Shown: positions 39,903-64,000, numbered from the stretch's first letter. The stretch is DNA of 64,000 nt from a virus (IMGVR_UViG_3300027970_002011:15585-79584), one strand, 5' to 3'. Notes: generated from the sequence alone by a model not told the origin. Translations and numbers: made by a program.

Positions 39903-41900
39903 TTATACCCCACCGCCAGCTTGATTAGCCCCAAGAGCATGTTGCATTATTGCCGTTCCTTCACTATTCACAACTGAACAACAAATACATCCTGAGATAG
40001 ATTGATTTGTGGTTGATACTGTCACATTTTGTTTAATAACTGTTGAACATCCTTGGACATTTCTTGGTAGAGTAACTTCCATGTCAGATACTGATGTACC
40101 GCTAACAACATCATTATAACCCATCGTAATTGTTGTATAGGTTGAAACATCAACGGTTTGAGTTTGTGTATTTGGTGAACAATATGGTCTATTAGTTGTT
40201 GATGAACTTGATACTGGTGTAGTTGTTAATGTTGTGTTGTTTTTCTTAACCACATTTGTATAATCAATTATACCGTCACCAGGTCTTTGAACCAATTGGT
40301 CGTTATTAATTAACAAATCAAATGTGATTTGTGTACCTTGTGGGATTGGTGGTATAATATTAACCTTCCAAGTCATTGACTCTTGATTTACTCCAATTGG
40401 ATTTGATAGTTTCTGAACACCAATACTATAAGTTGTAACCGATGCTTGGTTTGCAACTGTTGTTACTTGAGAGTACTCATCACCATTTGAATCTTTTACC
40501 ACAACACTATAACTTCCACCACACAAATCAGAGAATATGTTTGATGTTTGGTATGTTGTTCCATTGTTAATAGAATATTGGTAAGGTCCTGTTCCTCCAA
40601 TCGGATTAATTAAGATTGAACCGTTACAAACTGCTTCACAGTCTGCCAAACTTGTAAGAATTTGTGCCGATAAGAATACCGCAGTTGCACATGATTCATC
40701 CTGAACACTAACAGTTGCAGGAATTTCTGAACCAACTGAATACCAACCACTCAATGGTGGTACTGTTGGTGATTGTGAGTTAAGTGTTCCACCATATGCT
40801 GTGTATCCACTCGTTACCCACACACCTTGAGTTGGGTTCCATACAACATTGTATCCTGAACCATTTGTCCATGATGGTTTACCATTGACAACACCATTTG
40901 GTGTAAATTCAATTTGAACAGGAACTTGTTCTTGCCAAATAATATTAAAACAAAGTGTTGGATAAACTGGTGATGGTGTTGGTGTATTTGTTGGTGTAAG
41001 TGTTGGCGTTGGTGTTGGTGACGGAACTATCATTGAACATGTTGTAGTCGCTGTAAAATCACCATAAAAATCAACAACAGTTACTGTGTATTCACCCCCA
41101 TCTAAATTAAATAGGTATGGTGTTTTTTGTCCACCCTCCCAAGTAATATTATAAGGAGCAGTTCCACCTGTTATTCTCAAATATAATTTTCCATCGTAAC
41201 TTGTTGAAGACGATGGGTTGGTTCCATAACATTCAACCCCAAGTGGAAACAATGTAATTACATCACAATTGTTCGCTAATTTTGTAAAGGATTGATTACT
41301 TGGAGTAATCGTTGGAGTAGGTGTTAAAGTTGGTGTGGGTGTTGGTGTCTTTGTATTTGTCGGTGTTGGTGTAAGAGTATTTGTTGCCGTTATTGAAGGT
41401 GTGGGTGTTGGTGTTACACAAGACGTTGACGCTGGTACCCCCAATTTAACAACACCGTTGTATGGCTTTGTGTAATCAAAAATAATTGCGGTTTCTTCTC
41501 CGTTTCCTTCTTGAAACACTCCACAACAATCATAATAATAGTATTGTCCTGTTGTATAACCTGAACCACAAACTATTAATGTTGGTGTTGGTGTGTGGTT
41601 TGGGGTTCTTGTTGGGAATGGACTTGGGGTAAACGAAGGTTCAGGAGTTTCCTCACAAGGATAAAGTAATATACCCTCAAAATTAATATAACCTGTTCCA
41701 CCATTTTCAATATAGACATCCTCAGAATCTGAGTAAGCACCGTTCTCTAAACAACCACAAACACTTGAAAATTGTCCCGCACCAATAACATGACTTTCAA
41801 GAGATAAGGTGGTACAATTATAGGTATAATAAATCTGATTTACATCAGAATTATTCCATACCATCCATCTAACACAAGTTGTACAAGCCATCAGGGACAA
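39903..41900 (-). CDS. Cys-rich structural protein with Thr-Pro linkers and SprB-like repeats
   Basis: [12 protein letters not shown]...GEYTVTVVD and [14 protein letters not shown]...GSYSVVVKD. Confidence 0.75.
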
Positions 41901-42538
41901 ATAATAAAGTCAATTATGATTCCTGTTGAATCTATTTGTACCGCGTATGTATTAGCACCAAATGTCATTTTTCTCCACCTATTAATTTGATTTACCGGAT
42001 TGTATAAAACACCCCCAAGATTTGTTGAATAAACCTCCGCACCCAATACAGGTATTGTTGGTGTATCAACATAATAAGTATAGTATTGAGTCACCAAAAG
42101 TGAATCATCACAAACACCTGAAGAACCAACATATAAATTAGCACCTATGGTGTGTCCATAAACTAATGGAGTTGGAGTTGGAGTAGGTGTTTTAGTTGGC
42201 GTTGGAGTCGGTGATGCAACTACACTGGTTGATACAGTTGGTGTAACAGTTGGTGTCACCGTTTTAGTTGGTGTTGGAGTTGCCGTCTTAGTTGGTGTTG
42301 GCGTTTGTGTGGGCGTTGGAGTTGGTGTTATGGCAACTGTATGATAAACTATACAACCAGCAACGTCCACAACTTTAATTATAAAATTTTCTGTAGCATA
42401 TGTGTCATCAACTTCAAACACATATGGTGCATTTGCAACAGTTGAGACATAGGTACAACTACCACTTAAAGCATCACAAACATACACATCAAAAGGTGTG
42501 TTAGCTGTAATTGTAGTTATTTCTATATTAACTGGCAT
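41891..42538 (-). CDS. Thr-Pro-linker protein
   Basis: N-domain PFDVYVC...IKVVD..GC paralogous to 42556..43815. Confidence 0.75.
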
Positions 42539-42555
42539 CAGTTATAAATAATATT

Positions 42556-43815
42556 TTATTGGTATTTTATGTATACCGGTTGATTAACAACAAAATTTAT
42601 TGGTGAACCCGAAATCAATACAAGTTGTCCCGCTTGAAGTGGTGCTGTTTCATCATGGAAGAAGTTAGAACCATCAACCGCGAAACTATTTGTATTACCA
42701 CTATAAGTTGCCGTAGCACCACTTTGAGAGAATGATATTGAATAAGAACTTGTTGTTAACAAGTTGGAATAATAACTGTATCTGCTTGTACCACTAATGT
42801 CAACATAACTCCAATAAACCGCTCTATCAGAAATTCCGAATTGATTTGGTGTTGTAATACCTGTTGATGTTATGTAGTTTAAGAACACTGTTTCACCGGT
42901 AGGTGGAGTGTTAAAATTCGTATTCAAATCATACGCAAAACCAAGTAATGGTCCTCCTGATGGAGTTACCGTTGGTGTTGGTGTAGTACTCGGACTAAGA
43001 CCAGGTGTTACTGACGGTGTTGGTGTGGGCGATTGAGTCGCCTCAGGAGTTATTGAAGGTGTTACCGAAGATGTTGGTGTAGGACTAACAATCAAGGAAC
43101 TAGTCGGAGTAATAGTGTTTGTTGGAGTAACTGATGGACTTACTGTTATACTCGGTGTAATTGTTTGAGTTGGTGTTAAAGAATTTGTCGGAGTTACTGT
43201 TGGTGTTACTGTAACTGTTGAAGTTGTCGTTATTGTTGGAGTTGGTGTTTGAGTTGATGTTGGTGTTTGAGTTGGAGTTTCAGTTGGGGTTGGGGTTTGA
43301 GTCGCTGTTTGTGAAGGTGTGTTAGTTGGTGTGTATGTTGGAGTAACTGTAGGAGTTGGTGTCTTACTTGTTGTTGGAGTAAGTGAGTTTGTTGGCGTTA
43401 CTGTAGGTGTTAACGAGTTCGTGGGGGTTGAAGTTTTAGTAGGTGTAACGGTTGGAGTTGAAGTTTTGGTTACAGTTGGTGTCGGTGTTTGTGTTGTAGT
43501 ACTAGTTGGTGTTACAGTGTTTGTTGGTGTGAGTGATGGAGTTAAACTTATTGACGGTGTAACAGTCGGCGTTGGTGTTGGAGTTACGGTATATGCAATT
43601 GATGTGATACCTGTTATCACACAATTTTCATCATCCACAACTTTAACCATGTAACTATCACCATTGTTGTACGGTGATGGTATATCAAATATGTATGGTA
43701 AATCGCCAGTCACAATAGTTGATATGTAAAAGCATGAGGTACCACCACTTTGACAGATATAAACATCATATGGTGACGTTCCTGTAAGAGAATTGATTGT
43801 AACTTTTATTGCCAT
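42556..43815 (-). CDS. Mucin-like Thr-Pro repeat protein
   Basis: ~210-aa T/P/S tract between two globular domains. Confidence 0.8.
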
Positions 43816-43816
43816 T

Positions 43817-46800
43817 TTAACATTCGGTTATTGTTGATGGTGTAATACTTTTAACCATCAAAGGACTTGTTGATACCGTATCAGGTAATGAAGTGTAAGG
43901 ACAAATATCACAAGTTGACGAGTTGTATACTTTAGAACCTGTTGTTTGACCTTGTTGGATTGTTACTGTAAGTTCAGTAGTACTGTTACCTAAACAGTCA
44001 AAAGTTTCCATTTCAAATACCACTTGTACGGTTTGTGTTGCAGCTACAGGAATTCCGTTATTTAATAATGTAACCGTTATTTTATTTTCTGTTCTTGTAT
44101 ATCCTCCACACTGGTCAGGTAAGTTATTATTATAATTCGCATCATCCCAAGAAATACAAGCGATTTGACTATTAGTACCTGTTGAACCAACACAAGTTTC
44201 ACAATCTTGGTAAACAACTGTTTGTAGTCCCGCGAAATAATCACCACTGTAGTTTATGATGTTGGTATTACCCACAGGGTAGTAACTTTGGTATTGTCCA
44301 ACATATACCCAACAATTACCTTCTGAGTCTTTGAATGATTTAGTTGGTGTTAATGCAAATTCAACAAATGAAGTTTGAAGAACTGTTGTCTGAGAATATC
44401 CAAAACTATTCTGAGAACAAGATTGGAATACATATATCCATGCCACGTTAGTTGATGATGGTGTTGGTGTTAATGTCGGTGTAATTGAAGGTGTTGGTGT
44501 CATTGTTGGTGTTAATGTTGGTGTTGGTGTAAACGCAACTTCACAATCCACACAATTACCATACATGGCTTTAACTTCACTAACGGTTGAGTTAGAAGAT
44601 AAATTCTCATCATTTCTAACATAAGTTAAACAGAAGATATCCCCGTTAAGTACTCCTAAGAATGTTGTACCAGCAACTAAAGGTGTTCCACTAAACACAA
44701 GTGAATCATTTGTATAGAACTCAAGGTCACTTTGACAATCCTTCAATACTTTTGTGGTTACACAAGTAAATGCATCATCCACAAATCTGTATGTCACAGC
44801 CCCAGCAACATCCACAGTTCTTGTTGGACTTAAAGATAATGTTGGGGTTGGTGATGGAGTTTCAGGTAAGAATCTTTCAAAATCAAAATCAATACCCGTA
44901 TTACATGTAGGTGTTGATGGTGTCGGTGTTGGCGTAACCGCAAACTTAGTAAATTCAAAATTAACTACGTCACAAGTTATTGATGGTGTTGGTGATGGAT
45001 ATGGAACATAGTCACAATCAAAATACGCAACAAAATCTAAAGTGTTACAATTTATCGGCGAAGGCGTTGGTGTTGGACAAATTCCTGTTGTAAAGTAGTT
45101 GGCTGAAATGTCAGGACAAGGATTATAACATGGGTGTGCTCCCTCTAATAAACAACTACCACCCAAAGTATCACTTAAACACCAAAACGAACCTGTGTAG
45201 TAAATGTAACCTGTTGTAACACTATCTCCTGTATAATAATATCTTGAGTTATATGTTCCCCCAATTTCATAGTTACCTGAGTAATCTACCAAATCAGGTA
45301 GACTGGTTCTCAAGCAAAATTCTGTAGTTGCACACACACCCACCGATGGTGTTGGTGTTGGAGTAGCATTTGGGGTTCTTGTTGGACTTGGTGTTGGATT
45401 AATTACACAAATACCTGTTTGAACCACAATTACCTCAGAAGGTGCAATTATAGTATCTTCACAAACACAATATGTTGTTACCTCTAAAGGTGCCAATTCA
45501 ACGGTCAATTCATTTCCATAACAATCAATGTAACTAACTTCAGCAAAGGTAGTGTCACTAGTGTTTGTTATATCATATTCCAAACAATTACAAAGAATTG
45601 TTGGGGTATCTGTTACTGAAGGTGTGATAGTTGGTGTAACCGAAACACTTGGTGTTATAGATACTGATGGTGTAACGGTTGGAGTTGTTGTTGGAGTAAC
45701 TGTTGGTGTTTTTGTAACTGTTGGTGTAACAGATACTGATGGCGTAACAGAAACCGAAGGAGTTACCGACACAGAAGGTGTAACTGATGATGTAGGTGTT
45801 AGTGTCGGTGTAACACTTGAAGTTGGCGTTGTTGTTGGAGTGTTGGTTGGGGTTATAGTTGGGGTTGGTGTCAAAGAGGGACATACGTATGGTTGTAACG
45901 TAAAACAATCATTACAAGTTAAATAAAACGTAAGTGTATGTCCAACAGCATTATAAATTGGACCACTTGCAACATATGGTATTACTGTCGCACACCCTGT
46001 AAATGAAGGTCCTGTAATACCATAGGTATCACCCTCATTTAAAATACCCGAAACATTTTGGAATCTAAATACGTTACTTGGGTTACAACAATCTTGAAAT
46101 AAATAAATGTCATAAGGTTCCGATGGAGTAACCGTAGGAGTTACCGTTGGAGTTACTGATATACTTGGTGTAATAGAAGGCGTGTTTGTAGGAGTTACCG
46201 TTGGAGTCGTTGTTGGCGTATTTGTGGGAGTATGTGTTGGTGTTACAGACTCTGTTGGAGTTGGTGTAATTGTTGGCGTTGATGTCGGTGTATCCGATGG
46301 AGTTACCGATGCCGTAATTGATGGTGTATTAGTAGGTGTAGAAGTTGGTGTGTCTGTTGGAGTAACCGATGGTGTGACTGTTGGTGTAACAGAAGACGTT
46401 GGAGTTATTGTATTAGTTGGAGTTATTGTATTAGTTGGAGTAATTGTATTAGTTGGAGTAACTGTTGGTGTTAAAGATTCTGTCGGAGTTACTGACGGTG
46501 TATTGGTTGGTGTTGTTGATGGCGTTAATGGTGGTGTACCTGTTGGTGTAACAGAAGACGTTGGAGTTATGGTATTAGTTGGTGTAATTGTTGGGGTAAC
46601 AGTGTTGGTTGGTGTAGTACTATTTGTAGGAGTCACCGTTGGAGTTACGGATTCTGTTGGTGTCACAGTAACTGACGGTGTTAAAGAACTTGTTGGCGTA
46701 AGTGAAGGTGTATTTGTAGGAGTATTGGTTGGTGTATTTGTAGGAGTATTTGTTGGTGTAAGTGTTGGTGAATTTGTAGGAGTATTGGTTGGTGAATTTG

Positions 46801-47806
46801 TAGGAGTATTTGTTGGTGTTAAACTATTTGTTGGTGTATTGGTAGGTGTGATGGTTGGAGTATTTGTTGGTGTTTCAGTCGGTGTTGGTGTTAATGTTGG
46901 TGTTGGAGATGGACAAATAACACACTCAGAACAATTTGAGAAAATTTCGGTAGATTGTATTAAAACAGAACCTGTACCACCTAAAGTAACACTCTGAACT
47001 TCCCAACAAGTGCCTAAATAAGAAATAACATTACCATTTATTGGTACCGTACATCCCGCAGCATCAATTGATGATGTATTTGTACCATCACAACAATCTA
47101 TTAACGTTGCTGTCCAATCAAAACAAGGATTAACTCCTTCACACTCAACACAAGAATTATGAAAAGTCTTGTAAACACCAATAGAAGCCCCTGGTGTTCC
47201 TGAAATAATTTCAAAACAACATCCATCAACATCATATACAAGTCCAACACTTGAACTCGCATTTGGTACCGTAATGGTTAATTGTACAGTACCAGTACAA
47301 CAGTCTTCTACTAAAACATCAGTTAGAGTTTGTCCAGGAGATATTGTTGGTGTTGGAGTTTGTGTAGGAGTTTTTGTAACCGTTGGTGTTACAGTTGGCG
47401 TTTTTGTTTGAGTGGGTGTAACTGAAGGTGTTGTTGTTGGTGTTCTTGTTGGTGTTCTTGTTGGTGTTACAGTAGGTGTTTTTGTTTGAGTTGGTGTTGG
47501 TGTTGGTGAAGGAATTAAAGTAACCGCCAATGAACATGCACCAAGACCACACGCAGGGTCAGTACAATCAGTTGCGACTAACTGTAATGATGTTACTGTT
47601 CCAACAAAAGTACTATTTCCAGAACCAGGATTAACTAAAGATGGTCCGTATACAATCTCAAAACAAACACCACCGCCGCCTACAGCCCTGAAAACATCAC
47701 CAACAGAAATAATTCCCGATGGATATAACGGACTTGATACACTGTTAAGAGTAACAATATTAAAAGGGTTTTTACAACACTGTAATTGAATATATGCGGT
47801 TGCCAT
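43817..47806 (-). CDS. Large mucin-like Thr-Pro repeat protein with repeated Cys-rich modules
   Basis: Long (TPTx)n tracts alternating with DCC...C...CxxC modules. Confidence 0.82.
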
Positions 47807-47870: not shown

Positions 47871-48095
47871 ATGAGATTAATAAAGGAATTCTTCAATATA
47901 TTTATAATTGTGAGACTTTTAAAAACAATCAAGAAAGTAATTGAGGAGGCTGAGGATAGATATCTCTCAGCATGTGAAAATAATGTTCCATTAAAAGAGT
48001 TGGACAAACTTGAGGAGAATTATAAAAAATCACTAAAGTTAATGGAGATGTTAGAAACAAAATCTCCTGAAAAAACAATCAAAAAGAAATCTTAA
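47871..48095 (+). CDS. Small hypothetical protein
   Basis: 74-aa ORF filling the gap; start uncertain. Confidence 0.5.
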   Translation: MRLIKEFFNIFIIVRLLKTIKKVIEEAEDRYLSACENNVPLKELDKLEENYKKSLKLMEMLETKSPEKTIKKKS

Positions 48096-48855
48096 ATTTC
48101 TCATCGGGTAAGGATACTCCTTTTTTACTTACCACATCTGAACAAACCTCGTTTGCAAAAGATATTGATTGAATTAAGTCATTTGTTTTGATATAGTAGG
48201 ATACAAATGATGCAACAAAAGTATCACCAGCGCCACTAACATCTATAGTATCTTGTGGTTTTGGTGACCTATAAATACTACCCATATACATCGCTCCTTT
48301 AGAACCCAAAGTTATTATAAATTTATCGGGATGTTCGTCAACCAAATTTTTATTGTTATTATATTCTATTTCATTTTGTTTGACAAAAGAAATATTTTCA
48401 ATAATATCCCAACTCAATTTCTTCTTAGTATCTAAAATAGATAAACTAGCAATTTTACTTATATCACGAATCATTTGTTCACTAACATATCCCTTATTAT
48501 AATCACTTATTATAACAACATCGGATTCCATGATAGTTTTTTTCTGTTCAGGTGAAAGAAAATTCAAACTTTCACATGGTTGTAATTCACCCTCATCAAC
48601 ACGTGTAATCATTTGATTACTTTTTTTCTCAACATATCTTGTTTTTTCAATTTTATTGTGTTGATACCAATGAACAATATCACCCTCAGGTAATAGAGTT
48701 TTTAAGTTTTCAACAACATTACCCGCCATACCATTGTTGGTGGTTGTTTGAATCGGGTTCAATACCGGAACAGGTGCCTCAGGACACAATCTTTTTATTT
48801 CACAATACACAAATCGGTCAACACAAAGTTCACCTATAACTAAAATTTTTGCCAT
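48079..48855 (-). CDS. Heptose-7-phosphate kinase (HldE/RfaE kinase domain, PfkB family)
   Basis: RLCPEAPVPVL, GMAGNV, ISDYNKG, DVSGAGDTF. Confidence 0.9.
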   Translation of the reverse strand: MAKILVIGELCVDRFVYCEIKRLCPEAPVPVLNPIQTTTNNGMAGNVVENLKTLLPEGDIVHWYQHNKIEKTRYVEKKSNQMITRVDEGELQPCESLNFLSPEQKKTIMESDVVIISDYNKGYVSEQMIRDISKIASLSILDTKKKLSWDIIENISFVKQNEIEYNNNKNLVDEHPDKFIITLGSKGAMYMGSIYRSPKPQDTIDVSGAGDTFVASFVSYYIKTNDLIQSISFANEVCSDVVSKKGVSLPDEKFKISF

Positions 48856-49643: not shown

Positions 49644-50250
49644 TAATTTTTTGTCCCCGAGGCATTATTTCACCTCTACGACAAACACTAATATACCAGT
49701 GATAATCTAATAGATAAATATTATGTGGATTTTTATTCAAACGAATACTACCATTTATTTCATTTTCCCAAGGATTCTCGTTAGGTAAAACATTATCTTT
49801 TAATTTACTTTTTCTCCAAAGACCAAATTGATGGTTCTGAGTATATTCAGAATCTTGAGCAAACTTTAATAAATTATCTTTAATTTTAATGGTTTTTATT
49901 AGATTAATATTTTCCTTAATATGTAATTGGTCCATTTTATATTCTTCAAACATTTCAAGAATATTATCCTTTAATTCAAAATCTTTAATACACCAAAAAT
50001 CCTCTTGCATATAAAATACAAGTTCAGATTCAATTTGTTCTAAAGCAATTAATAGTCTTTCACCCCACTCACCTTTACCAGTTTTAATGTGAGTAACATC
50101 ATTCACAAAATCAGGTTCTTTTTCTTCAGATAAAAAGATAATTGGTCCGTGATTTTTACAATGTAAATTAAATAAGTGATACCATGGATTCCAAAATTTG
50201 GAATATGAATCCATTGAATGTAATATTACTGGTATCTCATTAATTTTCAT
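49618..50250 (-). CDS. Putative GT-A-like glycosyltransferase
   Basis: WGERL, YMQEDFW, LWRK, PWENE; context. Confidence 0.5.
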   Translation of the reverse strand: MKINEIPVILHSMDSYSKFWNPWYHLFNLHCKNHGPIIFLSEEKEPDFVNDVTHIKTGKGEWGERLLIALEQIESELVFYMQEDFWCIKDFELKDNILEMFEEYKMDQLHIKENINLIKTIKIKDNLLKFAQDSEYTQNHQFGLWRKSKLKDNVLPNENPWENEINGSIRLNKNPHNIYLLDYHWYISVCRRGEIMPRGQKIIEKYGINF

Positions 50251-51016: not shown

Positions 51017-51017
51017 T

Positions 51018-52585: not shown

Positions 52586-52637
52586 AATCTATTTTCAATA
52601 ACATAATTATAAACTATTTTTTTAAAAAAGTAATATT

Positions 52638-54834: not shown

Positions 54835-56324
54835 AACATAAATCCAAATCTATAATCTTTTTTAACACCTAAAATTTCTTCAACACTTTTTTTAGTTATA
54901 ATAATACAATTCTTATAATGCGTAATTGATTCAATATTTTGGTGATTTTTAACCCTACTAAAGTTAGAGTTTATTTTGTGTGGGACTGAAGAAAAATAAT
55001 CAATAACATTATAATTACCAATCTCATATCCATATATGGTTTCTTTGGGATTCCAATAGTTACATTCAATATCTTCAATGATGTAAACTCCACCTTCTTT
55101 TAACATATTTTCAAATAGGTAATTAAATGTTTCTATTTGGTGTTGTGGTTGGTGACTTCCGTCATCAATAATAACATCACACTGACCTATCAAATTAAAC
55201 ATTCTTTCCAAGTCTTCGATTTTACTTTGGTCACCTTTATACATAATACCTCTTTCTTGATTTCTTTCTTCAGAGATATCCATAGCGTAAATCATACCGT
55301 TTTTAAAATATTCAATCCACATTCTAAAAGACGCCGCTTCGCTACCAGAACCAATTTCAAATAATTTTATTTTTTTATTACTTAATGGTTCCAAAAACTT
55401 TTCATAAATTCTATCATATCTATGTTCCAATACTTTGTCTGTATTGTATTTTAGACCCAGACCATACATATCACTATTGTTCTGATTTTCAAGAATAATA
55501 TTTACAACCTCATCAATAGCATCTTTATAATCACTGTAAGGTCTAACACAATTAACATCAATATAAAAACCTTGTTTCAACTTATCTAAATCATACACCC
55601 CATATTTTTTTTGGTTTTCTATTTCACCGTCCCATTTTAATTCTACAGGAAAGTTATGTCTTTCAATTCTCCTTGGGGTTAAAAATTTACTATAATGCCC
55701 TCGTTTTAATTTGATGATTTCAACATCGTGTTGATTGGTATTTACACAATCTGAAAAATAGAACTCATCAATCAACCACATAATTTTATAACCATCTTTG
55801 TAGTTTGAGTGTCTATTCATAAATTCGTCAAAAGAACAATCAGAATTTAAAATTTTTGTAAAAGTTTTACCCTTACCTGCGTTGTAGATATAACCATACA
55901 TCTCTTGTTTGAATGGTAGTGGTTCTTCTTGAAACAAGTCATTTGATTCAGGTCTGCTTAAGTCATATGCATCACTCGACATGATAACTAAAGAATCTTC
56001 TGAGTAGTGTTTTAGTTGTTCGACAAAATAATTTTTATTAATCATCAACATATCTAAATCACCACAAATACAAACATCATCAGGAAAGTATTTGGTACCG
56101 AACATTCTAACGGTACAGGCTTGAATTGCTGTGTGTATTCCTTCAACAAATTTAACATTTTTTACCAATCCGTTTCCATCATCATAGAACTCACTATCTT
56201 CATCAGAAATTTTAAAAAGGACTGGTTCCCAACCAAATAGTTCTCGACACAATTTAGCCTGAATTGGCCAAAACTCTAAGAAATAAGAGTCATCACTTGC
56301 AAATATTATTTTTTTAATTTCCAT
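54831..56324 (-). CDS. Putative glycosyltransferase-like domain + class I SAM sugar O-methyltransferase
   Basis: N-part GDLDM (DxD); C-part TDK..H.Y...Y, FEIG, GDQS, IIDDGSH, GGVYIIED. Confidence 0.75.
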   Translation of the reverse strand: MEIKKIIFASDDSYFLEFWPIQAKLCRELFGWEPVLFKISDEDSEFYDDGNGLVKNVKFVEGIHTAIQACTVRMFGTKYFPDDVCICGDLDMLMINKNYFVEQLKHYSEDSLVIMSSDAYDLSRPESNDLFQEEPLPFKQEMYGYIYNAGKGKTFTKILNSDCSFDEFMNRHSNYKDGYKIMWLIDEFYFSDCVNTNQHDVEIIKLKRGHYSKFLTPRRIERHNFPVELKWDGEIENQKKYGVYDLDKLKQGFYIDVNCVRPYSDYKDAIDEVVNIILENQNNSDMYGLGLKYNTDKVLEHRYDRIYEKFLEPLSNKKIKLFEIGSGSEAASFRMWIEYFKNGMIYAMDISEERNQERGIMYKGDQSKIEDLERMFNLIGQCDVIIDDGSHQPQHQIETFNYLFENMLKEGGVYIIEDIECNYWNPKETIYGYEIGNYNVIDYFSSVPHKINSNFSRVKNHQNIESITHYKNCIIITKKSVEEILGVKKDYRFGFML

Positions 56325-56868
56325 AAAACTTATTAATAAACCCATCTATATCATCGGACCACATATCCATTGCATTGTCTCTAATTTTTTGTTCATCCCA
56401 ATCCCACCAAGAAATTGATAATAGTTTTTCAATTTGCTCTTCGGTAAATCTATACTTAACAACTTTAGCAGGATTACCGGCAACAATTGCGTATGGAGGA
56501 ACATCTTTAGTAACTGTAGAACCAGCCGCCACTATAGCACCATTACCAATTTTTATACCTGACATAATCGTTGAGTTAGCACCAATCCATACGTCATTTT
56601 CAATAATAATGTCACCTTTGCAGGATGGGTGGCCCATATCCATATGCATTTGAGCAATCTCGTGATTTACAGGACCCCAAAGTTGTGATGAGGTTGTAAC
56701 CCAGTCAGGTCTGTGATTAGCGTGTAAGAAAAAATTACAATCCCTACCAATTGAATTGTATTTACCAACCCTAACATTGTATTGGTCACTCCATGAAATT
56801 ATGTTTACATGTCGGTCAAAATAGGTACCCCTATCTGCATGCCAAAGATGTATGTTTTCTATATTCAT
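56314..56868 (-). CDS. CatB/Vat-related hexapeptide O-acetyltransferase
   Basis: KGDIIIENDVWIG, VTKDVPPYAIVAGNPA, WWDW. Confidence 0.88.
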   Translation of the reverse strand: MNIENIHLWHADRGTYFDRHVNIISWSDQYNVRVGKYNSIGRDCNFFLHANHRPDWVTTSSQLWGPVNHEIAQMHMDMGHPSCKGDIIIENDVWIGANSTIMSGIKIGNGAIVAAGSTVTKDVPPYAIVAGNPAKVVKYRFTEEQIEKLLSISWWDWDEQKIRDNAMDMWSDDIDGFINKFYGN

Positions 56869-57866
56869 ATTTGAAATGATTCTTTATATCTGAAACTACT
56901 TTTTTTGAAGATATCAATTTCTTCATTACTATTTAATTTAAATTTATTTCTAATTTCACCATTTTCAATTATTAATATACTTTGGATTTCATTTACATTA
57001 CCTAAATTAACTAATCTCCAATGGTTTAATAATGTTGTTGGTATATTAACAATCCTATCATTATTAAGAATTATAATGTGTTCAACACCATTTTGATTTT
57101 TTGTATTCCAAACAACAAATCCAATAGTATCGTTTAATTTATCGTAAAAAGGTACCGCCCATGGTATAAACTTAACACCAACTTGTCCATCAATTATACC
57201 GAATTTATTTCCATTTACTTCGAGACTATGTCTGTCTTTTTTAAAAACTTTTCCACTATCTTCCAATATTTTCTGAAGCATCAATTCAGGTGATTTAGTT
57301 TCTGATTGTCTAATCATCTCAACTATTTTTCCCTCATCTAAATTAATCAGAAACTTATCTAATGTTGGTAACAAATATGATTGGAAACTTCCGAATAAAA
57401 TGTCATCAACATTTTCTCTACTATCAATATAAATTACAGAATCAAATTCATCTAATAATACAGAGTTATTTTTAAACTCTTCAATGTTTTCAATATTACA
57501 ATCGTACTCAATGTGGTGAACTTTGTTATATCCCATATTTTTTGCTAACGAAAATCCCAATATCATCATTCTCCATATTGCAAGATGTGTATTTTTTCCA
57601 GTTAAAAATGAAGACTGAATTCTTCTTTCATTATTTGGATTAAACCAAGGTTGGTTAAGTAAATCCCAATCAGTAAGTATCTCATTTTTACTATCATAAA
57701 AACAATAATTAACTTTATTTTGAATATCAAAAGGGATTGGTGTATGACTAACAATTAAAGTATCAAAAGTATCTTTAAATTTTAAGAGTGAATTTACTAA
57801 ATTTCTTAGAATATTTTCTCTATGTTCGTCAGGACAATAAGCGGTAATTAAGATTAAATCTTTCAT
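56865..57866 (-). CDS. Hypothetical protein, possible glycosyltransferase
   Basis: ILITAYCPD...HHIEYD; paralog of the 53035..54834 N-domain. Confidence 0.6.
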   Translation of the reverse strand: MKDLILITAYCPDEHRENILRNLVNSLLKFKDTFDTLIVSHTPIPFDIQNKVNYCFYDSKNEILTDWDLLNQPWFNPNNERRIQSSFLTGKNTHLAIWRMMILGFSLAKNMGYNKVHHIEYDCNIENIEEFKNNSVLLDEFDSVIYIDSRENVDDILFGSFQSYLLPTLDKFLINLDEGKIVEMIRQSETKSPELMLQKILEDSGKVFKKDRHSLEVNGNKFGIIDGQVGVKFIPWAVPFYDKLNDTIGFVVWNTKNQNGVEHIIILNNDRIVNIPTTLLNHWRLVNLGNVNEIQSILIIENGEIRNKFKLNSNEEIDIFKKSSFRYKESFQI

Positions 57867-58444
57867 TATAATATTTTTTTTGTTGGGACACCGACATAAA
57901 TTCCTAGTTCTTCTATGTCTTTAACAACCGCACCATTCATACCTATAGTTGTTAATGAATGAATTGATAATTTTTCCTTAATTGATGAATTATTACCCAT
58001 ATAAACTAAATCATGAATTGTAACATTACCTGAAACAATTGCTCCTGGCATCGCACTAAAATAATTACCAATTTCACAATCGTGACCAATATGGTTACCT
58101 CTATTTAGTAACGCATGTTTACCTATTTTTATATTAGTTGTTAAGATTGAATGAGCACCTATAAAACTACCTTCACCAATTTCAACATCATCACTCATGA
58201 TTAAAGCAGTTGGGTGAATCCAAGTAAAATATTTTGTTTCTTTTGGTAATCTTTGAACTATATCAAACCTATCCTTTGAGTCTGCAACTGCAACCATCAA
58301 AGCATATTTTTTTGGGTTAAACTTTGATAATGGTAGTGTTCCTTCAACAACATATTCATCGTCAACAAAACAAGTAAGTTTAACTCCCATTTGAGCCATA
58401 ACCTCACGAGCGTGTCCCCCATACCCAATCAAAGCTTTTTTCAT
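57866..58444 (-). CDS. PglD/NeuD-family sugar acetyltransferase
   Basis: IGYGGHAREV, IHPTA, IGHD, YVGVP. Confidence 0.9.
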   Translation of the reverse strand: MKKALIGYGGHAREVMAQMGVKLTCFVDDEYVVEGTLPLSKFNPKKYALMVAVADSKDRFDIVQRLPKETKYFTWIHPTALIMSDDVEIGEGSFIGAHSILTTNIKIGKHALLNRGNHIGHDCEIGNYFSAMPGAIVSGNVTIHDLVYMGNNSSIKEKLSIHSLTTIGMNGAVVKDIEELGIYVGVPTKKIL

Positions 58445-59085
58445 TGTTTATAAACATCAAACTTTGATAAATCAGGATATGGTAATTCCAAATCCTCGTT
58501 ATGTTTTTTACTACCATCAAGATTGTAGAATTGGTTCATAAGAAGTAATCCTCTTGCAGCCAATTCAGGCATCATGTAGAAGTTCCACCCTATCATATCT
58601 AAGTAATCGTCATGATAAGAACATTCACGTCTTCCACTATATCTCGCTCTTTTAAACCAGTGATACGCCTCAAGACTATCTGTCAATATTGCACCACCCT
58701 TACTTAATTTGAAATGTTTGTAAGGACCTGTGAATGAAACACAAATGTGTTGGTTTGGTTTATACATATCAGCTGTAAAACTTAATGCCGAATCCCAAAC
58801 ATTACTTCCCTTGAGTTGGTACATACCTTTAATTGTTTTACCTTCAATAGGTTCAAAATCAACTTTAAGACCCGCATGAATAATCTCACACGGAACCGAA
58901 GGATATGTTCTACAAGGAATTCCTACTTTATCATCAGTAATACTTTTTTTAACGTTTTTTTCATAATACAACGCCAAAAACAAAGCATTACTCATATTAT
59001 CTACGGTAATCACATATGGTGCACCCGTATAATCTGAAAGAGCTTTCTCAAAATCTTCTGTAATTTTATAAATACCATTTGCCAT
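58441..59085 (-). CDS. DegT/DnrJ/EryC1/StrS aminotransferase (short form)
   Basis: FEKAL, TYPSVP, DSA, SFTGPYK, GGAILTD, GWNFYM; start placed at ATG 59085. Confidence 0.85.
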   Translation of the reverse strand: MANGIYKITEDFEKALSDYTGAPYVITVDNMSNALFLALYYEKNVKKSITDDKVGIPCRTYPSVPCEIIHAGLKVDFEPIEGKTIKGMYQLKGSNVWDSALSFTADMYKPNQHICVSFTGPYKHFKLSKGGAILTDSLEAYHWFKRARYSGRRECSYHDDYLDMIGWNFYMMPELAARGLLLMNQFYNLDGSKKHNEDLELPYPDLSKFDVYKQ

Positions 59086-59141
59086 ATGTTGAAAAAATAG
59101 AATAAAATAATATATTTTCAATAATCAACTTAACACTTTAT

Positions 59142-61433
59142 ATGGAAAAACCAAAAATTTATGTTCATGGGTCTTACATCGGAACAACAGGGTATAATAA
59201 CCACACAAGAGATTTTTTAAGAGAACTATCAAAACACACAAAAGTTAAAGTAAGAAACTTTACTGTTGGTAACAGTTGGAATGGTTATAACTTAACCCCC
59301 CATGATAACGAACCTTACATTAATGATGTCGATAAATCAATGTTATACAAACAGATTTTGTATAACTCTGAAGGTAAGTTAGAGGACTTTCTAATTTACC
59401 CTGACAAGTCAAAAGAGTTTTTTCAAGACGTTAACATTGTATTAAGTGAAACAAACCATCATATCTTCTATCAAGATTATGTTGGTCCAAAAATAGCGTA
59501 TAACGTTTGGGAATCAACTTTACAACCTGAAGAGTTCTTCAACGAACTTTTAAAGTACGACGAGATTTGGGTTCCAAGTAAATGGCAAAGAGAATGTACT
59601 ATCAACCAAGGCGCTAACCCAAACAAAGTTAAAGTTGTACCTGAAGGTGTTGATATTCATACATTCTTTCCTGAAGAAGTTGAAAAGTTGGAACAATATA
59701 ATGATGGTCGGTTCAAGTTTCTATTGTTTGGTCGTTGGGATTACAGAAAATCAACCAAGGAAATAATTCAAACATTCTTAAAGACGTTCTCACCTGACGA
59801 ACCCGTAGATTTGGTTGTGTCGATTGACAATATGTGGGGTGAAGAAATGGATGGTTATAAAACCACTGAGGAACGATTGGAGGCTTACGGTCTAACTGAC
59901 CCAAGAATCAAAATGATTCACTTCCCAACAAGAGAAGATTATATCAAATACCTTAAAACAGGTCACGTGTTTGTTTCTTGTGCAAGGTCTGAAGGATGGA
60001 ACTTACCACTTATCGAAGCCATGGCTTGTGGTACCCCGTCAATTTATTCTGAGTGTTGCGCTCAAATGGAGTTTGCCGAAGGTAAGGGTATTCCTGTAAA
60101 GATTATTGGTGAAAAACCGGCGAATTCAAATGACTACGGTAGATACACAATGAGCGATTTACCAGGAAACTATTATGAACCTGATTTCAATGATTTATCA
60201 GAAAAGATGAGGTTTGTTTATAAAAATTACAAACAATGTAAATTAGACGCAATTAAAGATGCTATTGAGATTCATAAAGAATTCTCTTGGGAAAGAATTG
60301 GTGAAATCGGTTATAATACCGTTGTTGAGTTCATGAAAAACCATAAAAAGACCGACGTTGACAATAATAAAATTTCTGTTTTTTATCTTGACGGCCCAAA
60401 GGTTGATATATCAGGTGATGAAGATAGAACTTATTTTGTTGAGTTTTTAGATGAGAAAGATAATGTAATTCATTCTCATACCATGAAAAACAATCATTGG
60501 GTTCAATGTGGTAGAAAATATTATACAAAGTGGAGGATTAGAGTTAATGGTAAAATTGTTGGGGAACTTGATTTAACAGGAAAAAGAGTTCTTATTTCAT
60601 TTGAATCAAAATCAATTGGTGATACAATTGCTTGGGCACCATATGCAATAGAATTTCAGAAAAAACATAACTGTCAGGTAGTTTTGAGTACCTTCCACAA
60701 TAGTTGGTTTAAAAATAACCCTAACTATGAAAGTATTGAATTTATTGAACCAGGACGTTCTACAAACTGTCACGCACTTTATAGAGTTGGTTGGTTTATG
60801 TCTGAAGAAGGAAAATGGAATAAGTTAGACAGTTATCCGAACTATATTCAAACACTACCACTTCAACAAACCGCAACAGATATTTTAGGTCTTGATTATG
60901 TTGAACGTAATTATGGTATTTTCTTTGATGTAAAGGAAAGACCATTCAAAAACAAATACGTTGTCTTGGCTCCCGAATCAACAGCGGGTTGTAAAGAATG
61001 GACTTATGAAGGATGGTGTTACTTAACAGACCAATTAATTAAAAAAGGTTATGAAGTTGTAATTCTTACAACAAAACCATACTCTGTTAAAGGTGCGAAA
61101 TGTATTTACGGAAAATCTCTCAATGATGCACTTAACATCCTTTATCATTCAGAATTCTTAGTATCCCCAAGTTCAGGCATGGCTTGGATGAATTGGGGTG
61201 TTGGTAAACATACCGTAATGATTAGTGGATTCACCCCCAAACACCACGAGTTTCAAACCAACATCACAAGAATAATCAACGAAAACGCTTGTAACTCTTG
61301 TTGGGCAAATACCAACTTTAAGTTTGACCCAGGTGATTGGGATTGGTGTCCTGTTTGGAAAGGAACGGATAAACAACACATTTGTGAAAAGTCTATTTCA
61401 CCATTAACAGTGTTCAATAGTTTACCAATATGA
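59142..61433 (+). CDS. GT4 glycosyltransferase fused to Aah/TibC-type (BAHT) protein O-heptosyltransferase
   Basis: GT4: RSEGWNLPLIEAMACG; BAHT-like: RKYYTKWRIRV, LDLTGKRVLISF...SIGDTIAWAPY..EFQKKH, CNSCW...WCP...HIC. Confidence 0.88.
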   Translation: MEKPKIYVHGSYIGTTGYNNHTRDFLRELSKHTKVKVRNFTVGNSWNGYNLTPHDNEPYINDVDKSMLYKQILYNSEGKLEDFLIYPDKSKEFFQDVNIVLSETNHHIFYQDYVGPKIAYNVWESTLQPEEFFNELLKYDEIWVPSKWQRECTINQGANPNKVKVVPEGVDIHTFFPEEVEKLEQYNDGRFKFLLFGRWDYRKSTKEIIQTFLKTFSPDEPVDLVVSIDNMWGEEMDGYKTTEERLEAYGLTDPRIKMIHFPTREDYIKYLKTGHVFVSCARSEGWNLPLIEAMACGTPSIYSECCAQMEFAEGKGIPVKIIGEKPANSNDYGRYTMSDLPGNYYEPDFNDLSEKMRFVYKNYKQCKLDAIKDAIEIHKEFSWERIGEIGYNTVVEFMKNHKKTDVDNNKISVFYLDGPKVDISGDEDRTYFVEFLDEKDNVIHSHTMKNNHWVQCGRKYYTKWRIRVNGKIVGELDLTGKRVLISFESKSIGDTIAWAPYAIEFQKKHNCQVVLSTFHNSWFKNNPNYESIEFIEPGRSTNCHALYRVGWFMSEEGKWNKLDSYPNYIQTLPLQQTATDILGLDYVERNYGIFFDVKERPFKNKYVVLAPESTAGCKEWTYEGWCYLTDQLIKKGYEVVILTTKPYSVKGAKCIYGKSLNDALNILYHSEFLVSPSSGMAWMNWGVGKHTVMISGFTPKHHEFQTNITRIINENACNSCWANTNFKFDPGDWDWCPVWKGTDKQHICEKSISPLTVFNSLPI

Positions 61434-62176
61434 TAGATATTTCAAATTTTGATTGGGGTTGGATGAGTAATCCTGTTGAATACGACGTTGATGGTGAGAC
61501 ACAATATCTTTGGCACATAAATCAAGATGGTTCTGCAATTCATATAAGTGAGTTTCATAAGAATTCTTTAATATCTGAAATTTTTGAATGGAGGATTTAT
61601 GAAAGATTTTTTGAAGTGGAACCAAGTGATATTGTTTTAGATATCGGGGCAAGTCTTGGTCCTTTCACATATTCAATTTTACATAAAAATCCAAAACACG
61701 TTTTTTGTTTTGAGCCAAGTAAAAAAGAGTTTAAAACTTTAGTTAAAAACACTATAGGTAATCCTGTAACTCAAATATTCAAAGGGATTGGACCCGAAAA
61801 TAATATTATTGAAAATTCACAACTTTTTGGTGGGGAAAATGAAATGGAGTCTATTAAATTCTCAACATTTATAGATTTATATTCATTGGGTAAGATAGAT
61901 TTTATGAAAACTGATTGTGAAGGTGGTGAATACGATATATTCAACGATGAGAATATTGAGTATATTCTTTTGAATGTGAAAAAAATTACAGGTGAGTGGC
62001 ATTTGAATACCCCACTGAATAAGAATAAATTTAGAAATTTTAGAGACAACTACTTAACTAAATTTAAAAAATTTGAAATATACTCTATTGATGGTTTTGA
62101 TATAAAATGGGACTTATGGAACGAACATTTTATAGAGTATTATAATGAAGTTATTATTTATATTGACAATCGTTAA
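61430..62176 (+). CDS. FkbM-family methyltransferase
   Basis: VLDIGASLG, FEP, IDFMKTDCEGGEY, EWH. Confidence 0.9.
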   Translation: MIDISNFDWGWMSNPVEYDVDGETQYLWHINQDGSAIHISEFHKNSLISEIFEWRIYERFFEVEPSDIVLDIGASLGPFTYSILHKNPKHVFCFEPSKKEFKTLVKNTIGNPVTQIFKGIGPENNIIENSQLFGGENEMESIKFSTFIDLYSLGKIDFMKTDCEGGEYDIFNDENIEYILLNVKKITGEWHLNTPLNKNKFRNFRDNYLTKFKKFEIYSIDGFDIKWDLWNEHFIEYYNEVIIYIDNR

Positions 62177-62180
62177 ATAA

Positions 62181-62210
62181 AAAAGGGGGTTTTTCAACCC
62201 CCTTTTCTTT
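62181..62210. terminator. Bidirectional intrinsic terminator
   Basis: AAAAGGGGGTT-TTTC-AACCCCCTTTT between convergent genes. Confidence 0.88.
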
Positions 62211-62218
62211 TATAATCT

Positions 62219-64000
62219 TTATTCTTTTATCGGTTTGTATTCCAACAGAACTTTAGATACATCCTTACGTTCTGCGAAGACTGTGAAGTAACAATTTGGT
62301 GTTCCATCTTGACAGTTAATGTAAACCTTATTGTTTTCAATCTTCTCAACCCAGTGAACACAAGGTCCTGAGATTGGTGTAAGTTGAACTGTCCAATCTG
62401 TGTCGTGAACAAGTCCTATCCAATAATCAGGGAGTTCAATCACTTTACTTGTTGCGTGTCCTCTGAAGTAAACTCCGTGTTCAGGACCTTCCAAGTTACC
62501 GTATCTCAATCTCCATCCTTCTTTTGTTGGGTGAGGAATATCAAACGACTTACTGTTTGCGGTGACGTTATCAAAGTTAAGAAGGTTTGCAACACCACCA
62601 CCTTCGATGTTACCAGGCGCAGCACTCATGTCAATGTCACCACCAACAAGGGTTATAGTACCAGCTCCGGTATTAATTCCACCACCACCAGTATCAATAC
62701 CACCTCCGGTTGTTTTAAGTATTGAACCGTCATAAGTAAGATTACTTTCAGCGTTTAGTTCTCCTGCGGTGTCACTACCTGTGATAAGTCTGTTGTTAGC
62801 GTTATTGTTGATAGTTGCAGCTCCTGATGTTCCTGAAGAACCACTAGTTCCCGAACTTCCGCTAGTTCCTGATGAACCTGAAGTTCCGCTTGAACCGCTA
62901 GTTCCCGATGAACCTGATTTACCTGAAGAACCTGACGAACCACTTGAACCGCTAGTTCCTGAAGAACCGCTAGTTCCCGATGAACCTGATTTACCTGAAG
63001 AACCTGACGAACCACTTGAACCGCTAGTTCCTGAACTTCCACTAGTTCCCGAACTTCCACTAGTTCCCGAACTTCCACTAGTTCCTGATGAACCTGATTT
63101 ACCTGATGAACCACTTGAACCGCTAGTTCCTGAAGAACCTGACGAACCACTTGAACCGCTAGTTCCTGAAGAACCTGACGAACCACTTGAACCGCTAGTT
63201 CCTGAACTTCCACTAGTTCCCGAACTTCCACTAGTTCCTGATGAACCTGATTTACCTGAAGAACCTGATGAACCACTTGAACCGCTAGTTCCTGAAGAAC
63301 CTGACGAACCACTTGAACCGCTAGTTCCTGAAGAACCTGACGAACCACTTGAACCGCTAGTTCCTGAACTTCCACTAGTTCCCGAACTTCCACTAGTTCC
63401 TGATGAACCTGATTTACCTGAAGAACCTGATGAACCACTTGAACCGCTAGTTCCTGAAGAACCTGACGAACCTGAAGTACCATCATCACCAGCAGTTTCA
63501 AAGAATACTGTGAATTGTTCACCATCACTCCAAGTACCCGATGCGATACCGTTAGTTACAAAATATCTAACCCAACCTGTTTGGTCAACACCGTCAGCAT
63601 CCATGAAATAGTATGCGTAATTGGTTGAAGGGTTTGTCACACTGACAAACTTAATCCAAGTTCTAAATAATGCCGGTGTAAGTATATTTTGGAAATTTGC
63701 TGAAGGTGTTAATGCCTCATAATCAATTGCGATTGCACTTACGGATGATAAAGTCGCAGTATTGAATCTAAAATTAGATATACCTGGGTCAGCTATGGTT
63801 GTTGAAGTATTGTATCTCCAAATAGCTATATGACCTTCTAAACCGCTAGTTCCCGATGAACCTGACTTACCTGAAGAACCTGAAGAACCACTTGAACCGC
63901 TAGTTCCTGATGAACCTGAAGAACCACTTGAACCGCTAGTTCCTGATGAACCTGAAGAACCTGAACTTCCACTAGTTCCGCTTGAACCACTAGTTCCCGA
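62219..64000 (-). CDS. Ser/Thr-rich Gly-X-Y (GSSGTS)n fibre protein, 5' end outside the window
   Basis: Frame stays open from 63640 to 64000 with more GSSGTS repeats; C-terminal KSFDIPHP...LEGPEHGVYFRG...LPDYW...VQLTP domain seen in phage fibres. Confidence 0.88.
   Translation of the reverse strand, partial: SGTSGSSGTSGSSGSSGSSGTSGSSGSSGSSGTSGSSGSSGSSGKSGSSGTSGLEGHIAIWRYNTSTTIADPGISNFRFNTATLSSVSAIAIDYEALTPSANFQNILTPALFRTWIKFVSVTNPSTNYAYYFMDADGVDQTGWVRYFVTNGIASGTWSDGEQFTVFFETAGDDGTSGSSGSSGTSGSSGSSGSSGKSGSSGTSGSSGTSGSSGTSGSSGSSGSSGTSGSSGSSGSSGTSGSSGSSGSSGKSGSSGTSGSSGTSGSSGTSGSSGSSGSSGTSGSSGSSGSSGTSGSSGSSGKSGSSGTSGSSGTSGSSGTSGSSGTSGSSGSSGSSGKSGSSGTSGSSGTSGSSGSSGSSGKSGSSGTSGSSGTSGSSGTSGSSGTSGSSGTSGAATINNNANNRLITGSDTAGELNAESNLTYDGSILKTTGGGIDTGGGGINTGAGTITLVGGDIDMSAAPGNIEGGGVANLLNFDNVTANSKSFDIPHPTKEGWRLRYGNLEGPEHGVYFRGHATSKVIELPDYWIGLVHDTDWTVQLTPISGPCVHWVEKIENNKVYINCQDGTPNCYFTVFAERKDVSKVLLEYKPIKE

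Follow-up and report, generated by a model that had tools for sequence, protein, structure and literature searches.

Introduction

Mycobacteriophages encode transferases that glycosylate the C-termini of their capsid and tail-tube proteins in the cytoplasm. Mimivirus decorates its surface fibrils with its own sugar-nucleotide enzymes and glycosyltransferases, and possesses collagen-like genes and the hydroxylase-glycosyltransferase L230. BclA, from the exosporium of Bacillus anthracis, is a collagen-like, GPT-rich and O-glycosylated protein whose oligosaccharide includes an acylated and methylated amino sugar, with rhamnose and anthrose genes in the system. Closest to the locus described here are the TibC-TibA and Aah-AIDA-I pairs of Escherichia coli, in which a bacterial autotransporter heptosyltransferase (BAHT) attaches heptose to an adhesin. 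In TibC, Asp-110 is the catalytic base; Thr-226, Lys-230 and Trp-305 contact the donor at its beta-phosphate and heptose; Arg-286 touches the adenine N1, and its mutation cripples the enzyme; and a beta-hairpin thumb drives the assembly of the dodecamer (PMC4358343). In AAH, Ser-294, which occupies the position of TibC Pro-300, permits the use of L,D-heptose (PMC4358343). In this work we describe a gene island with a transferase of this type (BAHT) in a stretch of 64,000 nucleotides, called the window, which comprises bases 15585-79584 of the 79.6-kb linear IMG/VR virus record IMGVR_UViG_3300027970_002011; positions are counted from its first base. We propose, with a probability of about 0.6 judged from sequence comparisons, that the island serves the cytoplasmic O-glycosylation of the Gly-Ser/Thr-Ser collagen-like fibre of the phage, a process that would be started by the BAHT-type domain.

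The source is a large T4-like lake phage with a genome of about 300 kb, a size that follows from the CheckV rating of the 79.6-kb record as 26% complete. Nearly all of the DNA described here was recovered in 14 lake-water metagenome runs, and the phage collection, searched by megablast with the island, gave no DNA-level match to any cultured phage. An original prediction, made from the sequence alone, had read the region as a system in which the phage makes its own heptose donor and glycosylates its fibres, rather than modifying the lipopolysaccharide (LPS) of the host.

Identity of the BAHT-type domain

The central gene of the island encodes a fusion protein, in which a glycosyltransferase domain of the GT4 family (about aa 130-315, with an EX7E motif; Pfam Glycos_transf_1, E=9e-11) precedes a BAHT domain (aa 418-759). 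The latter corresponds to positions 60361-61433, which the original prediction had taken for a TibC-like transferase, naming a grouping with LPS enzymes of the GT9 family as one outcome that would speak against the reading. The search with hidden Markov models bore out the TibC-like assignment: the domain scored 215 bits on TIGR04414, for which the equivalog cut-off is 200, and TibC (PDB 4RAP) was its only strong PDB match (E=1.6e-37). On the LPS heptosyltransferase I model TIGR02193 it reached 18.6 bits against a cut-off of 185.3. A score of 22.3 bits on Pfam Glyco_transf_9, just at the 22-bit cut-off, is expected for the related BAHT fold. By these comparisons, the transferase is a true BAHT-family domain and not an LPS enzyme of the GT9 family.

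Residue roles were taken from the TibC structure paper (PMC4358343) and transferred through the alignment. The catalytic Asp-110 (in the motif SIGD), Thr-226, Lys-230 and Trp-305 are invariant in the 9 phage and 15 mixed homologues aligned. The four iron-binding Cys (Cys-339/342/358/370) are kept in all the phage and bacterial homologues aligned, in the pattern CNSC...WCP...C, and this four-Cys finger is a putative iron site. In the phage domain, the position of TibC Pro-300 and AAH Ser-294 is occupied by Ser. This residue is compatible with the use of L,D-heptose, in agreement with the presence of an HldD-like gene in the island.

The GSS/GTS collagen-like fibre and its pairing with BAHT genes

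The gene that borders the island on this side, announced in the original prediction as a (GSSGTS)n fibre gene, is indeed a collagen-like gene. It lies 42 bp from the end of the operon, and its 5' end is cut off by the end of the contig. The gene presents uninterrupted Gly-X-Y repeats and matches tail-fibre PHROGs; its visible part holds 94 triplets (56 GSS, 28 GTS and 6 GKS), of which 90 have Ser at the Y position. This protein may form a triple helix. The other three collagen-like chains of the phage (2629-12960) are built of GxQ/GxT triplets, not of GSS/GTS. No autotransporter was found beside the BAHT gene, the neighbour being the collagen-like GSS/GTS protein. Gene neighbourhood suggests that this fibre is the best candidate acceptor.

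Repeat genes were surveyed around every retrievable BAHT homologue, a neighbour being defined as a gene within 10 kb. A collagen-like gene dominated by GSS/GTS triplets occurs at this distance from BAHT in the window, in Microcystis phage Mel-JY01 (202 triplets), in a 735-kb megaphage and in 8 of the 19 genome-collection loci, several others of which are 2-8 kb long or end at a contig edge. The positive genome-collection loci range from 31% to 66% in GC content and carry the labels of no fewer than five bacterial lineages. In one further phage relative the GSS/GTS gene is located about 15 kb from BAHT.

As a control, the repeat was searched through five whole bacterial genomes of 2.5-9.2 Mb. 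GSS/GTS genes are rare in these genomes, and the majority adjoin a BAHT gene. The distance from a full BAHT gene to the nearest of them is 10 kb or less in six of seven cases. The single strong repeat match of the 9.2-Mb genome is a BAHT neighbour, as are both matches of the 3.8-Mb genome. A third genome gave about seven matches: four are found on the flanks of its two BAHT paralogues, and another adjoins a BAHT pseudogene remnant. The pairing is far beyond chance, since a 20-kb neighbourhood represents about 0.2-0.8% of these genomes; as read from sequence, it is an association and not a proof.

Some of these loci deserve description in their own right. A BAHT remnant with two in-frame stops (G008:C27:8073-8216) adjoins a GSS-repeat gene, so in this genome the pairing outlasts the decay of the enzyme gene. 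In Mel-JY01 (PP395634.1), a stop-free plus-strand frame of 1016 residues (L002:2-3052) encodes a G/S/T collagen-like protein with 77 GTS and 57 GSS triplets. The same frame was deposited as minus-strand hypothetical coding sequences (CDSs) plus a short plus-strand CDS, and the deposited annotation probably misses the fibre gene. The contigs of two metagenome-assembled genomes, one from Arenicellales (L026:8462-11844) and one from a gammaproteobacterium (L027:7902-11074), carry a DUF6502 gene followed by a stand-alone BAHT gene, which is flanked by small GSS-rich proteins with lipoprotein-type signals, one of them with a twin-arginine-like motif.

In two Gammaproteobacteria-type genomes the BAHT partners are small lipoproteins. 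Such GSS-rich neighbours in bacterial genomes would agree with a BAHT enzyme acting on host proteins, such as Gly/Ser-rich lipoproteins or adhesins. A free glycoconjugate or metabolite could also be the product of the cluster, since DegT-like, acetyl-, methyl- and sulfo-transferase-like enzymes occur in secondary-metabolite pathways too. We regard both possibilities as very improbable, because the phage encodes its own matching GSS/GTS protein 42 bp from the end of the operon, and no export or carrier component accompanies the island.

Distribution of the island and other candidate acceptors

Searches for the GT4-BAHT architecture in metagenomes gave 1566 matches, on contigs of up to 176 kb, and most of the top 120 have a length of about 763 residues. 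The BAHT domain itself is represented by 1324 clusters at 50% identity (E<=1e-3); among the best 150 of these, most representatives have 500-2000 residues, well over the size of a stand-alone BAHT protein. Deposited phages with a BAHT homologue are only Mel-JY01 and three megaphage records. In Mel-JY01, GT4, FkbM and BAHT are joined in one protein of 1226 residues, which ties the three activities to a single task. Our literature search found no paper on phage BAHT enzymes, on the pairing of collagen-like proteins with heptosyltransferases, or on phage Mel-JY01.

Eleven related IMG/VR loci have in common a core of genes for BAHT, FkbM, DegT-like, N-acetyltransferase, GT-A, O-acetyltransferase, methyltransferase, epimerase and SET proteins. 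In five of them the island is immediately followed by the genes for the tail sheath, tail tube and baseplate hub, which makes it part of the virion structural module. Two loci (L008:4854-7940 and L013:5503-8474) present, in addition, just upstream of the island, an 823-residue fusion of GT4, GT25 and a 2-oxoglutarate (2OG)-Fe(II) oxygenase, plus a separate 2OG oxygenase, located between proline-rich collagen-like genes and the BAHT gene. By analogy, this set is reminiscent of collagen lysyl/prolyl hydroxylases with collagen glycosyltransferases.

On its other side the island is bordered by four genes with long Thr-Pro tracts (39903-47806), as their translations confirmed. The proteins have small Cys-rich modules in common, and the function of phrog_15511, which three of them match, is not assigned. 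The SprB repeat found in the first of them is typical of gliding adhesins of Bacteroidota, and could be a possible clue to the host. The original prediction had counted these mucin-like proteins among the substrates, together with the fibre, and had proposed to look for co-occurrence of both kinds of gene with BAHT and the heptose genes. The fibre half of this idea gained support, as GSS/GTS genes neighbour BAHT in distant phages and in bacteria. For the other half there is no linkage: no Thr-Pro-rich gene, nor any homologue of the four proteins, was found in any related BAHT locus. On present sequence comparisons the Thr-Pro proteins are neighbours of the island, and a role as substrates is not supported.

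Glycosylation might also fall mainly on virion proteins other than the GSS/GTS fibre, that is, on the capsid, the sheath, other fibres, the Thr-Pro proteins or the GxQ/GxT chains. In L003/L004, L009 and L010 the island abuts sheath and tube genes and no GSS/GTS gene is visible, the phage has several further repeat proteins, and its glycosyltransferase-like proteins (at least five) point to more than a single acceptor or linkage. Mycobacteriophages, moreover, are known to glycosylate their capsid and tail-tube proteins. Nevertheless, the specific GSS/GTS-BAHT pairing recurs far beyond this phage lineage, Thr-Pro genes are never beside BAHT in related loci, and the relatives with no visible GSS/GTS gene are fragments of 18-40% completeness, often cut beside the island. 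We consider this alternative unlikely, though deserving of some weight, and maintain the GSS/GTS fibre as the probable acceptor.

Gene content and organization of the island

Open reading frame (ORF) calls and Pfam/NCBIfam scans reproduced the announced island of 14 kb (48079-62176), with heptose kinase, nucleotidyltransferase, HldD epimerase, Aah/TibC-like transferase and further glycosyltransferase-like and tailoring genes. It contains 16 tightly packed genes (Table 1). Two operons are on the minus strand (59085->53035 and 52585->48079), with overlaps between neighbours of mostly 1-32 bases. A divergent pair (59142-62176) is on the plus strand, where the start of the FkbM gene overlaps the stop of the BAHT gene by 4 bases. 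The small SET gene, also on the plus strand, lies between both minus-strand operons.

Table 1. Coordinates of the predicted genes in the window, with the evidence for each assignment.
Feature	Position	Strand	Evidence
Thr-Pro-linker protein 1, 665 aa, Cys-rich modules and SprB repeat	39903-41900	-	Translation; Pfam SprB E=3.8e-9
Thr-Pro-linker protein 2, 215 aa	41891-42538	-	Translation; phrog_15511
Thr-Pro-linker protein 3, 419 aa	42556-43815	-	Translation; phrog_15511
Thr-Pro-linker protein 4, 1329 aa, repeated Cys modules between TPT tracts	43817-47806	-	Translation; phrog_15511 E=8e-35
HldA-type (PfkB) sugar kinase, probably heptose-7-phosphate kinase	48079-48855	-	TIGR02198 rfaE_dom_I best; GAGD motif
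GT-D-fold-like glycosyltransferase candidate	48855-49643	-	Pfam GT-D-like E=2.5e-9, above cut-off
Soluble protein, 210 aa	49618-50250	-	0 Pfam, NCBIfam, PHROG matches
HldC-type sugar-1-phosphate nucleotidyltransferase	50247-50654	-	TIGR02199 rfaE_dom_II best; HRGH motif
Small cupin, 129 aa, candidate sugar isomerase/epimerase	50627-51016	-	Pfam Cupin_2 E=7e-7
Sulfotransferase-like protein, 250 aa, lead only	51018-51770	-	ESM Atlas neighbours; SRSGHH motif
HldD-like ADP-heptose 6-epimerase (SDR)	51767-52585	-	TIGR02197 193.7 bits
SET-domain protein, 135 aa	52638-53045	+	Pfam SET E=9e-15
Two-domain protein, 599 aa	53035-54834	-	N-terminal paralogue of 56865-57866 gene; C-terminal FkbM-like motif
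504-aa protein, C-terminal S-adenosylmethionine (SAM) methyltransferase domain, DxD in N-terminal part	54831-56345	-	phrog_21658 methyltransferase E=7e-18
Hexapeptide O-acetyltransferase (Vat/CatB-like)	56314-56868	-	Hexapep E=4e-11; NF000311 134 bits
GT-A-fold glycosyltransferase candidate, 333 aa, C-terminal beta domain	56865-57866	-	AlphaFold2 (AF2) model and Foldseek
NeuD/PglD/VioB-type amino-sugar N-acetyltransferase	57866-58444	-	TIGR03570 152 bits (cut-off 160.8); PglD_N
Short DegT-family pyridoxal/pyridoxamine phosphate (PLP/PMP)-enzyme-like protein, 214 aa	58441-59085	-	Pfam DegT E=1e-11, N-terminal part only
GT4 and BAHT (TibC/Aah-type) fusion, 763 residues	59142-61433	+	TIGR04414; Glycos_transf_1; TibC 4RAP
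FkbM-family methyltransferase	61430-62176	+	TIGR01444 43.9 bits, above cut-off
Proline-free collagen-like fibre gene (G-S-S/G-T-S/G-K-S), globular C-terminal domain	62219-64000	-	Pfam Collagen E=8e-41

Three genes of the minus-strand operons encode the putative heptose enzymes. The kinase and the nucleotidyltransferase found their best models in TIGR02198 (124 bits, cut-off 345) and TIGR02199 (84.6 bits, cut-off 181.5), respectively, and for the epimerase the model that followed TIGR02197 (cut-off 274.6) was GalE, with 52 bits. The signature motifs GAGD, HxGH, GxxGxxG and YxxxK are kept in these proteins, and orthologues of the epimerase in L003/L004/L012 are 62-68% identical. Three of the five steps of heptose activation are visible on the available DNA. 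The earlier claim that the phage makes its own donor is thus sustained only in part, for the HldA/HldC/HldD-like set and not for GmhA and GmhB, which are not on the record.

Among the candidate glycosyltransferases, a structural model was made of the 333-aa protein. Built with orthologues and paralogues, the AF2 model has a confidence score (pLDDT) of 78, and Foldseek related it to TarS, glycogenin and TarP at E~1e-6 to 1e-5, with query TM-scores of 0.33-0.38. The model makes the protein a candidate glycosyltransferase of GT-A fold, and its family is virus-only in the Atlas. The N-terminus of the 599-aa protein is paralogous to that of the 333-aa protein (BLASTP E=7e-5), the C-terminal part is FkbM-like by the motif VHTDVEGIDFELI, and in L012 the protein corresponds to two separate genes. 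PDB sequence searches with the 599-aa and 333-aa proteins gave no matches.

As for the tailoring enzymes, the acetyl- and methyltransferases listed in the original prediction were found, whereas its aminotransferase is a truncated DegT-like protein. The truncation is conserved (start ATG at 59085; orthologues 69-85% identical), the AF2 model has a pLDDT of 36 only, and activity as a PLP/PMP enzyme is uncertain. The 504-aa protein also gave weak matches to Pfam Methyltransf_24/31. For the cupin, no informative match was found in the PDB. The nearest named ESM Atlas clusters of the 250-aa protein are sulfotransferases (score 0.96), and the SRSGHH motif is close to its N-terminus; these language-model neighbours are a lead only. 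Its PDB sequence search returned a chance-level match alone (E=0.14), its orthologue adjoins the epimerase in L003/L004, and a supposed relationship with the phrog_13607 genes of L008 was discarded, the proteins being unrelated on comparison. The SET gene is kept beside the epimerase in L011/L012, with about 63% identity, and the periodic GKS triplets of the adjoining fibre could be the target of this putative lysine methyltransferase-type protein.

As had been noted from the sequence, no stand-alone WaaC/WaaF-like gene was found in the island scans, which likewise gave no match to flippase, ABC transporter, polymerase, ligase or initiating transferase families. In addition, none of the island proteins contains a stretch hydrophobic enough for a transmembrane segment (no 19-residue window reaches Kyte-Doolittle 1.6).

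These results bear on the usual interpretation of sugar clusters in T4-like aquatic phages, the main rival of our proposal, by which the island would remodel the surface polysaccharide of the host (LPS core, O-chain or capsule) during infection, for instance against superinfection. A review of jumbo phages attributed cyanophage clusters of PfkB kinase, HIGH-superfamily nucleotidyltransferase, SDR, cupin and glycosyltransferase genes to capsule/LPS modification (PMC7824862), and rfaE and the glycosyltransferases of the host-recognition cluster were interpreted likewise in a pelagimyophage study (PMC7029224). ADP-heptose is also the classical donor of the LPS core, and LPS-core transferases are likewise soluble or peripheral. 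However, the sole heptosyltransferase-like domain is of the protein-modifying BAHT type and not WaaC/WaaF; no flippase, polymerase, ligase, initiating phosphoglycosyltransferase or membrane protein came out of the island scans; the island belongs to the structural module in relatives; and BAHT genes track GSS/GTS protein genes, in bacteria included. We therefore judge host-surface remodelling to be quite unlikely. DNA glycosylation was dropped, since the lead enzyme belongs to a family of protein-Ser transferases.

Some observations concern the regulation and the surroundings of the island. The 12-mer TTATTGAAAATA occurs three times in the window without a mismatch, each time within the island (52590-52601, 59113-59124 and, on the minus strand, 48393-48404), and two of them sit in the two divergent intergenic regions of 52-56 bp. 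When up to one mismatch is allowed, the count rises to 9, for an expectation of 2.6, and the motif is not conserved in related loci. The late-promoter motif TATTTAT is present upstream of Thr-Pro genes TP4 and TP2, and not of the island operons. A G+C-rich hairpin, GGGGGTTTTTCAACCCCC, at 62181-62207, with A and T runs on either side, is located between the convergent FkbM and collagen-like genes and looks like a bidirectional terminator. Upstream of the island and the Thr-Pro genes are genes for a primase, an exonuclease, an SbcC-like protein and a sigma factor. A second sugar cluster, at the other contig end of the same record and before the window (L036:3-3292), includes the uridine diphosphate (UDP)-galactopyranose mutase gene (Glf) and two GT2 genes. 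In three lake or freshwater metatranscriptome libraries, short contigs correspond to portions of the genes for the BAHT, DegT-like, N-acetyltransferase, epimerase and kinase proteins (window 48000-62250) at 90-99% identity, the longer pieces mostly at 95-99%. These matches are no proof of transcription and were not used as evidence; they are a weak hint that the phage or close relatives are active in lakes.

Proposed pathway

In the pathway that we propose, the kinase, nucleotidyltransferase and epimerase, whose types are assigned by homology, would convert heptose-7-phosphate into a nucleoside diphosphate (NDP)-L,D-heptose, probably the adenosine diphosphate (ADP) form, and the isomerase and phosphatase steps would be supplied by the host or by unseen phage DNA. 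The BAHT domain would then move heptose onto Ser hydroxyls of the repeat, an acceptor to which the conserved neighbourhood points. Extension of the glycan would be the task of the GT4 domain of the fusion, together with the GT-A-like and GT-D-like proteins, the DegT-like/PglD-like pair would possibly provide an acetamido sugar, and O-acetyl-, methyl- and possibly sulfo-transferases would decorate the product. The gene content of the island implies that the predicted glycan is an oligosaccharide bearing acetyl and methyl groups, and perhaps sulfate, and not a single heptose. The glycosylated fibre would be built onto the particle, where the glycan might, speculatively, stabilise or hydrate a proline-free triple helix, or serve adhesion or shielding.

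Several points weigh against this proposal. All three heptose genes score under the equivalog cut-offs, and GmhA and GmhB were not found with SIS_2 and TIGR01656 in the 79.6-kb record, which represents 26% of the genome. The kinase and the nucleotidyltransferase were not found in five related partial contigs, which are fragmentary and hence uninformative. In the BAHT domain, Arg-286 is replaced by Ala in the window protein and by Val/Thr/Ile in GT4-fused T4-like relatives, while bacterial stand-alone homologues and the megaphage L015 retain it, and the beta-hairpin thumb is deleted (TibC residues 264-272 correspond to a gap in the phage sequence). As Arg-286 is the adenine contact in TibC, its replacement makes the donor nucleotide uncertain, and both donor and mode of action may differ from those of TibC. 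The known BAHT acceptors are beta-helical autotransporter passengers, not collagen-like repeats (PMC4358343). Several close relatives show no GSS/GTS gene within the DNA available. Finally, the acceptor is assigned by gene neighbourhood alone, and the fibre is a predicted virion component.

A broader hypothesis, which we put forward tentatively and with somewhat less than even confidence, is that a conserved enzyme-substrate relationship joins BAHT-type transferases to proline-free Gly-Ser/Thr-Ser collagen-like repeats, both in phages and in several phyla of bacteria. A dense O-heptosylation would replace hydroxyproline in stabilising the triple helix; in phages, the fused GT4 domain and the tailoring enzymes would extend it. 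If true, this would define a previously undescribed glyco-collagen class, serving as phage fibres and bacterial lipoproteins. If the proposed function of the island is correct, it would explain the possible stability of proline-free Gly-Ser collagen-like fibres, and the BAHT family, known only from few enterobacterial adhesin systems, would become a very large and mostly phage-borne radiation. A concrete alternative would then exist to the routine label of LPS auxiliary metabolic genes for the heptose and glycosyltransferase genes of aquatic phages, and glycan-coated fibres would matter for the adsorption of phages and for how they persist in water, as well as for their recognition by grazers or immune systems.

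Comparison with known systems

The phage system shares with TibC-TibA and Aah-AIDA-I of E. coli (PDB 4RAP/4RB4) a homologous catalytic domain above the equivalog cut-off, which retains the catalytic Asp, the residues that contact the beta-phosphate and the heptose, and the four-Cys iron finger. In both cases a soluble, predicted cytoplasmic enzyme is encoded beside a highly repetitive Ser-rich protein, with a donor pathway of the ADP-heptose type. On the other hand, the phage BAHT has an N-terminal GT4 fusion and is followed by an FkbM gene, its domain is without the beta-hairpin thumb and has Ala at Arg-286, and its neighbour is a collagen-like G-S/T-S repeat instead of a beta-helical autotransporter. 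Moreover, it is phage-encoded and belongs to a 14-kb island with other glycosyltransferases and with tailoring enzymes.

BclA resembles the phage fibre in having a collagen-like repeat with a hydroxyl residue per triplet, and similar kinds of tailoring enzymes (aminotransferase, acyltransferase and methyltransferase), but its initiating transferase and sugars are unrelated, and it belongs to a spore surface and not to a virus. Mimivirus is alike in that a virus supplies its own sugar enzymes for the decoration of surface fibrils and has collagen-like genes, and L008/L013 carry the GT4-GT25-2OG-oxygenase fusion beside genes of the latter kind; Mimivirus is, however, a eukaryotic giant virus with other sugars and enzymes and no BAHT. 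The mycobacteriophage systems differ in having no heptose pathway, BAHT or collagen-like repeat. The cyanophage and pelagimyophage clusters (PMC7824862, PMC7029224) share with the island the PfkB kinase, nucleotidyltransferase, SDR, cupin and several glycosyltransferases, in a variable region near tail-fibre genes. Those clusters were interpreted as host-surface modification, whereas the lead enzyme of the present island is a member of a protein-modifying family, and its gene tracks that of a specific repeat protein.

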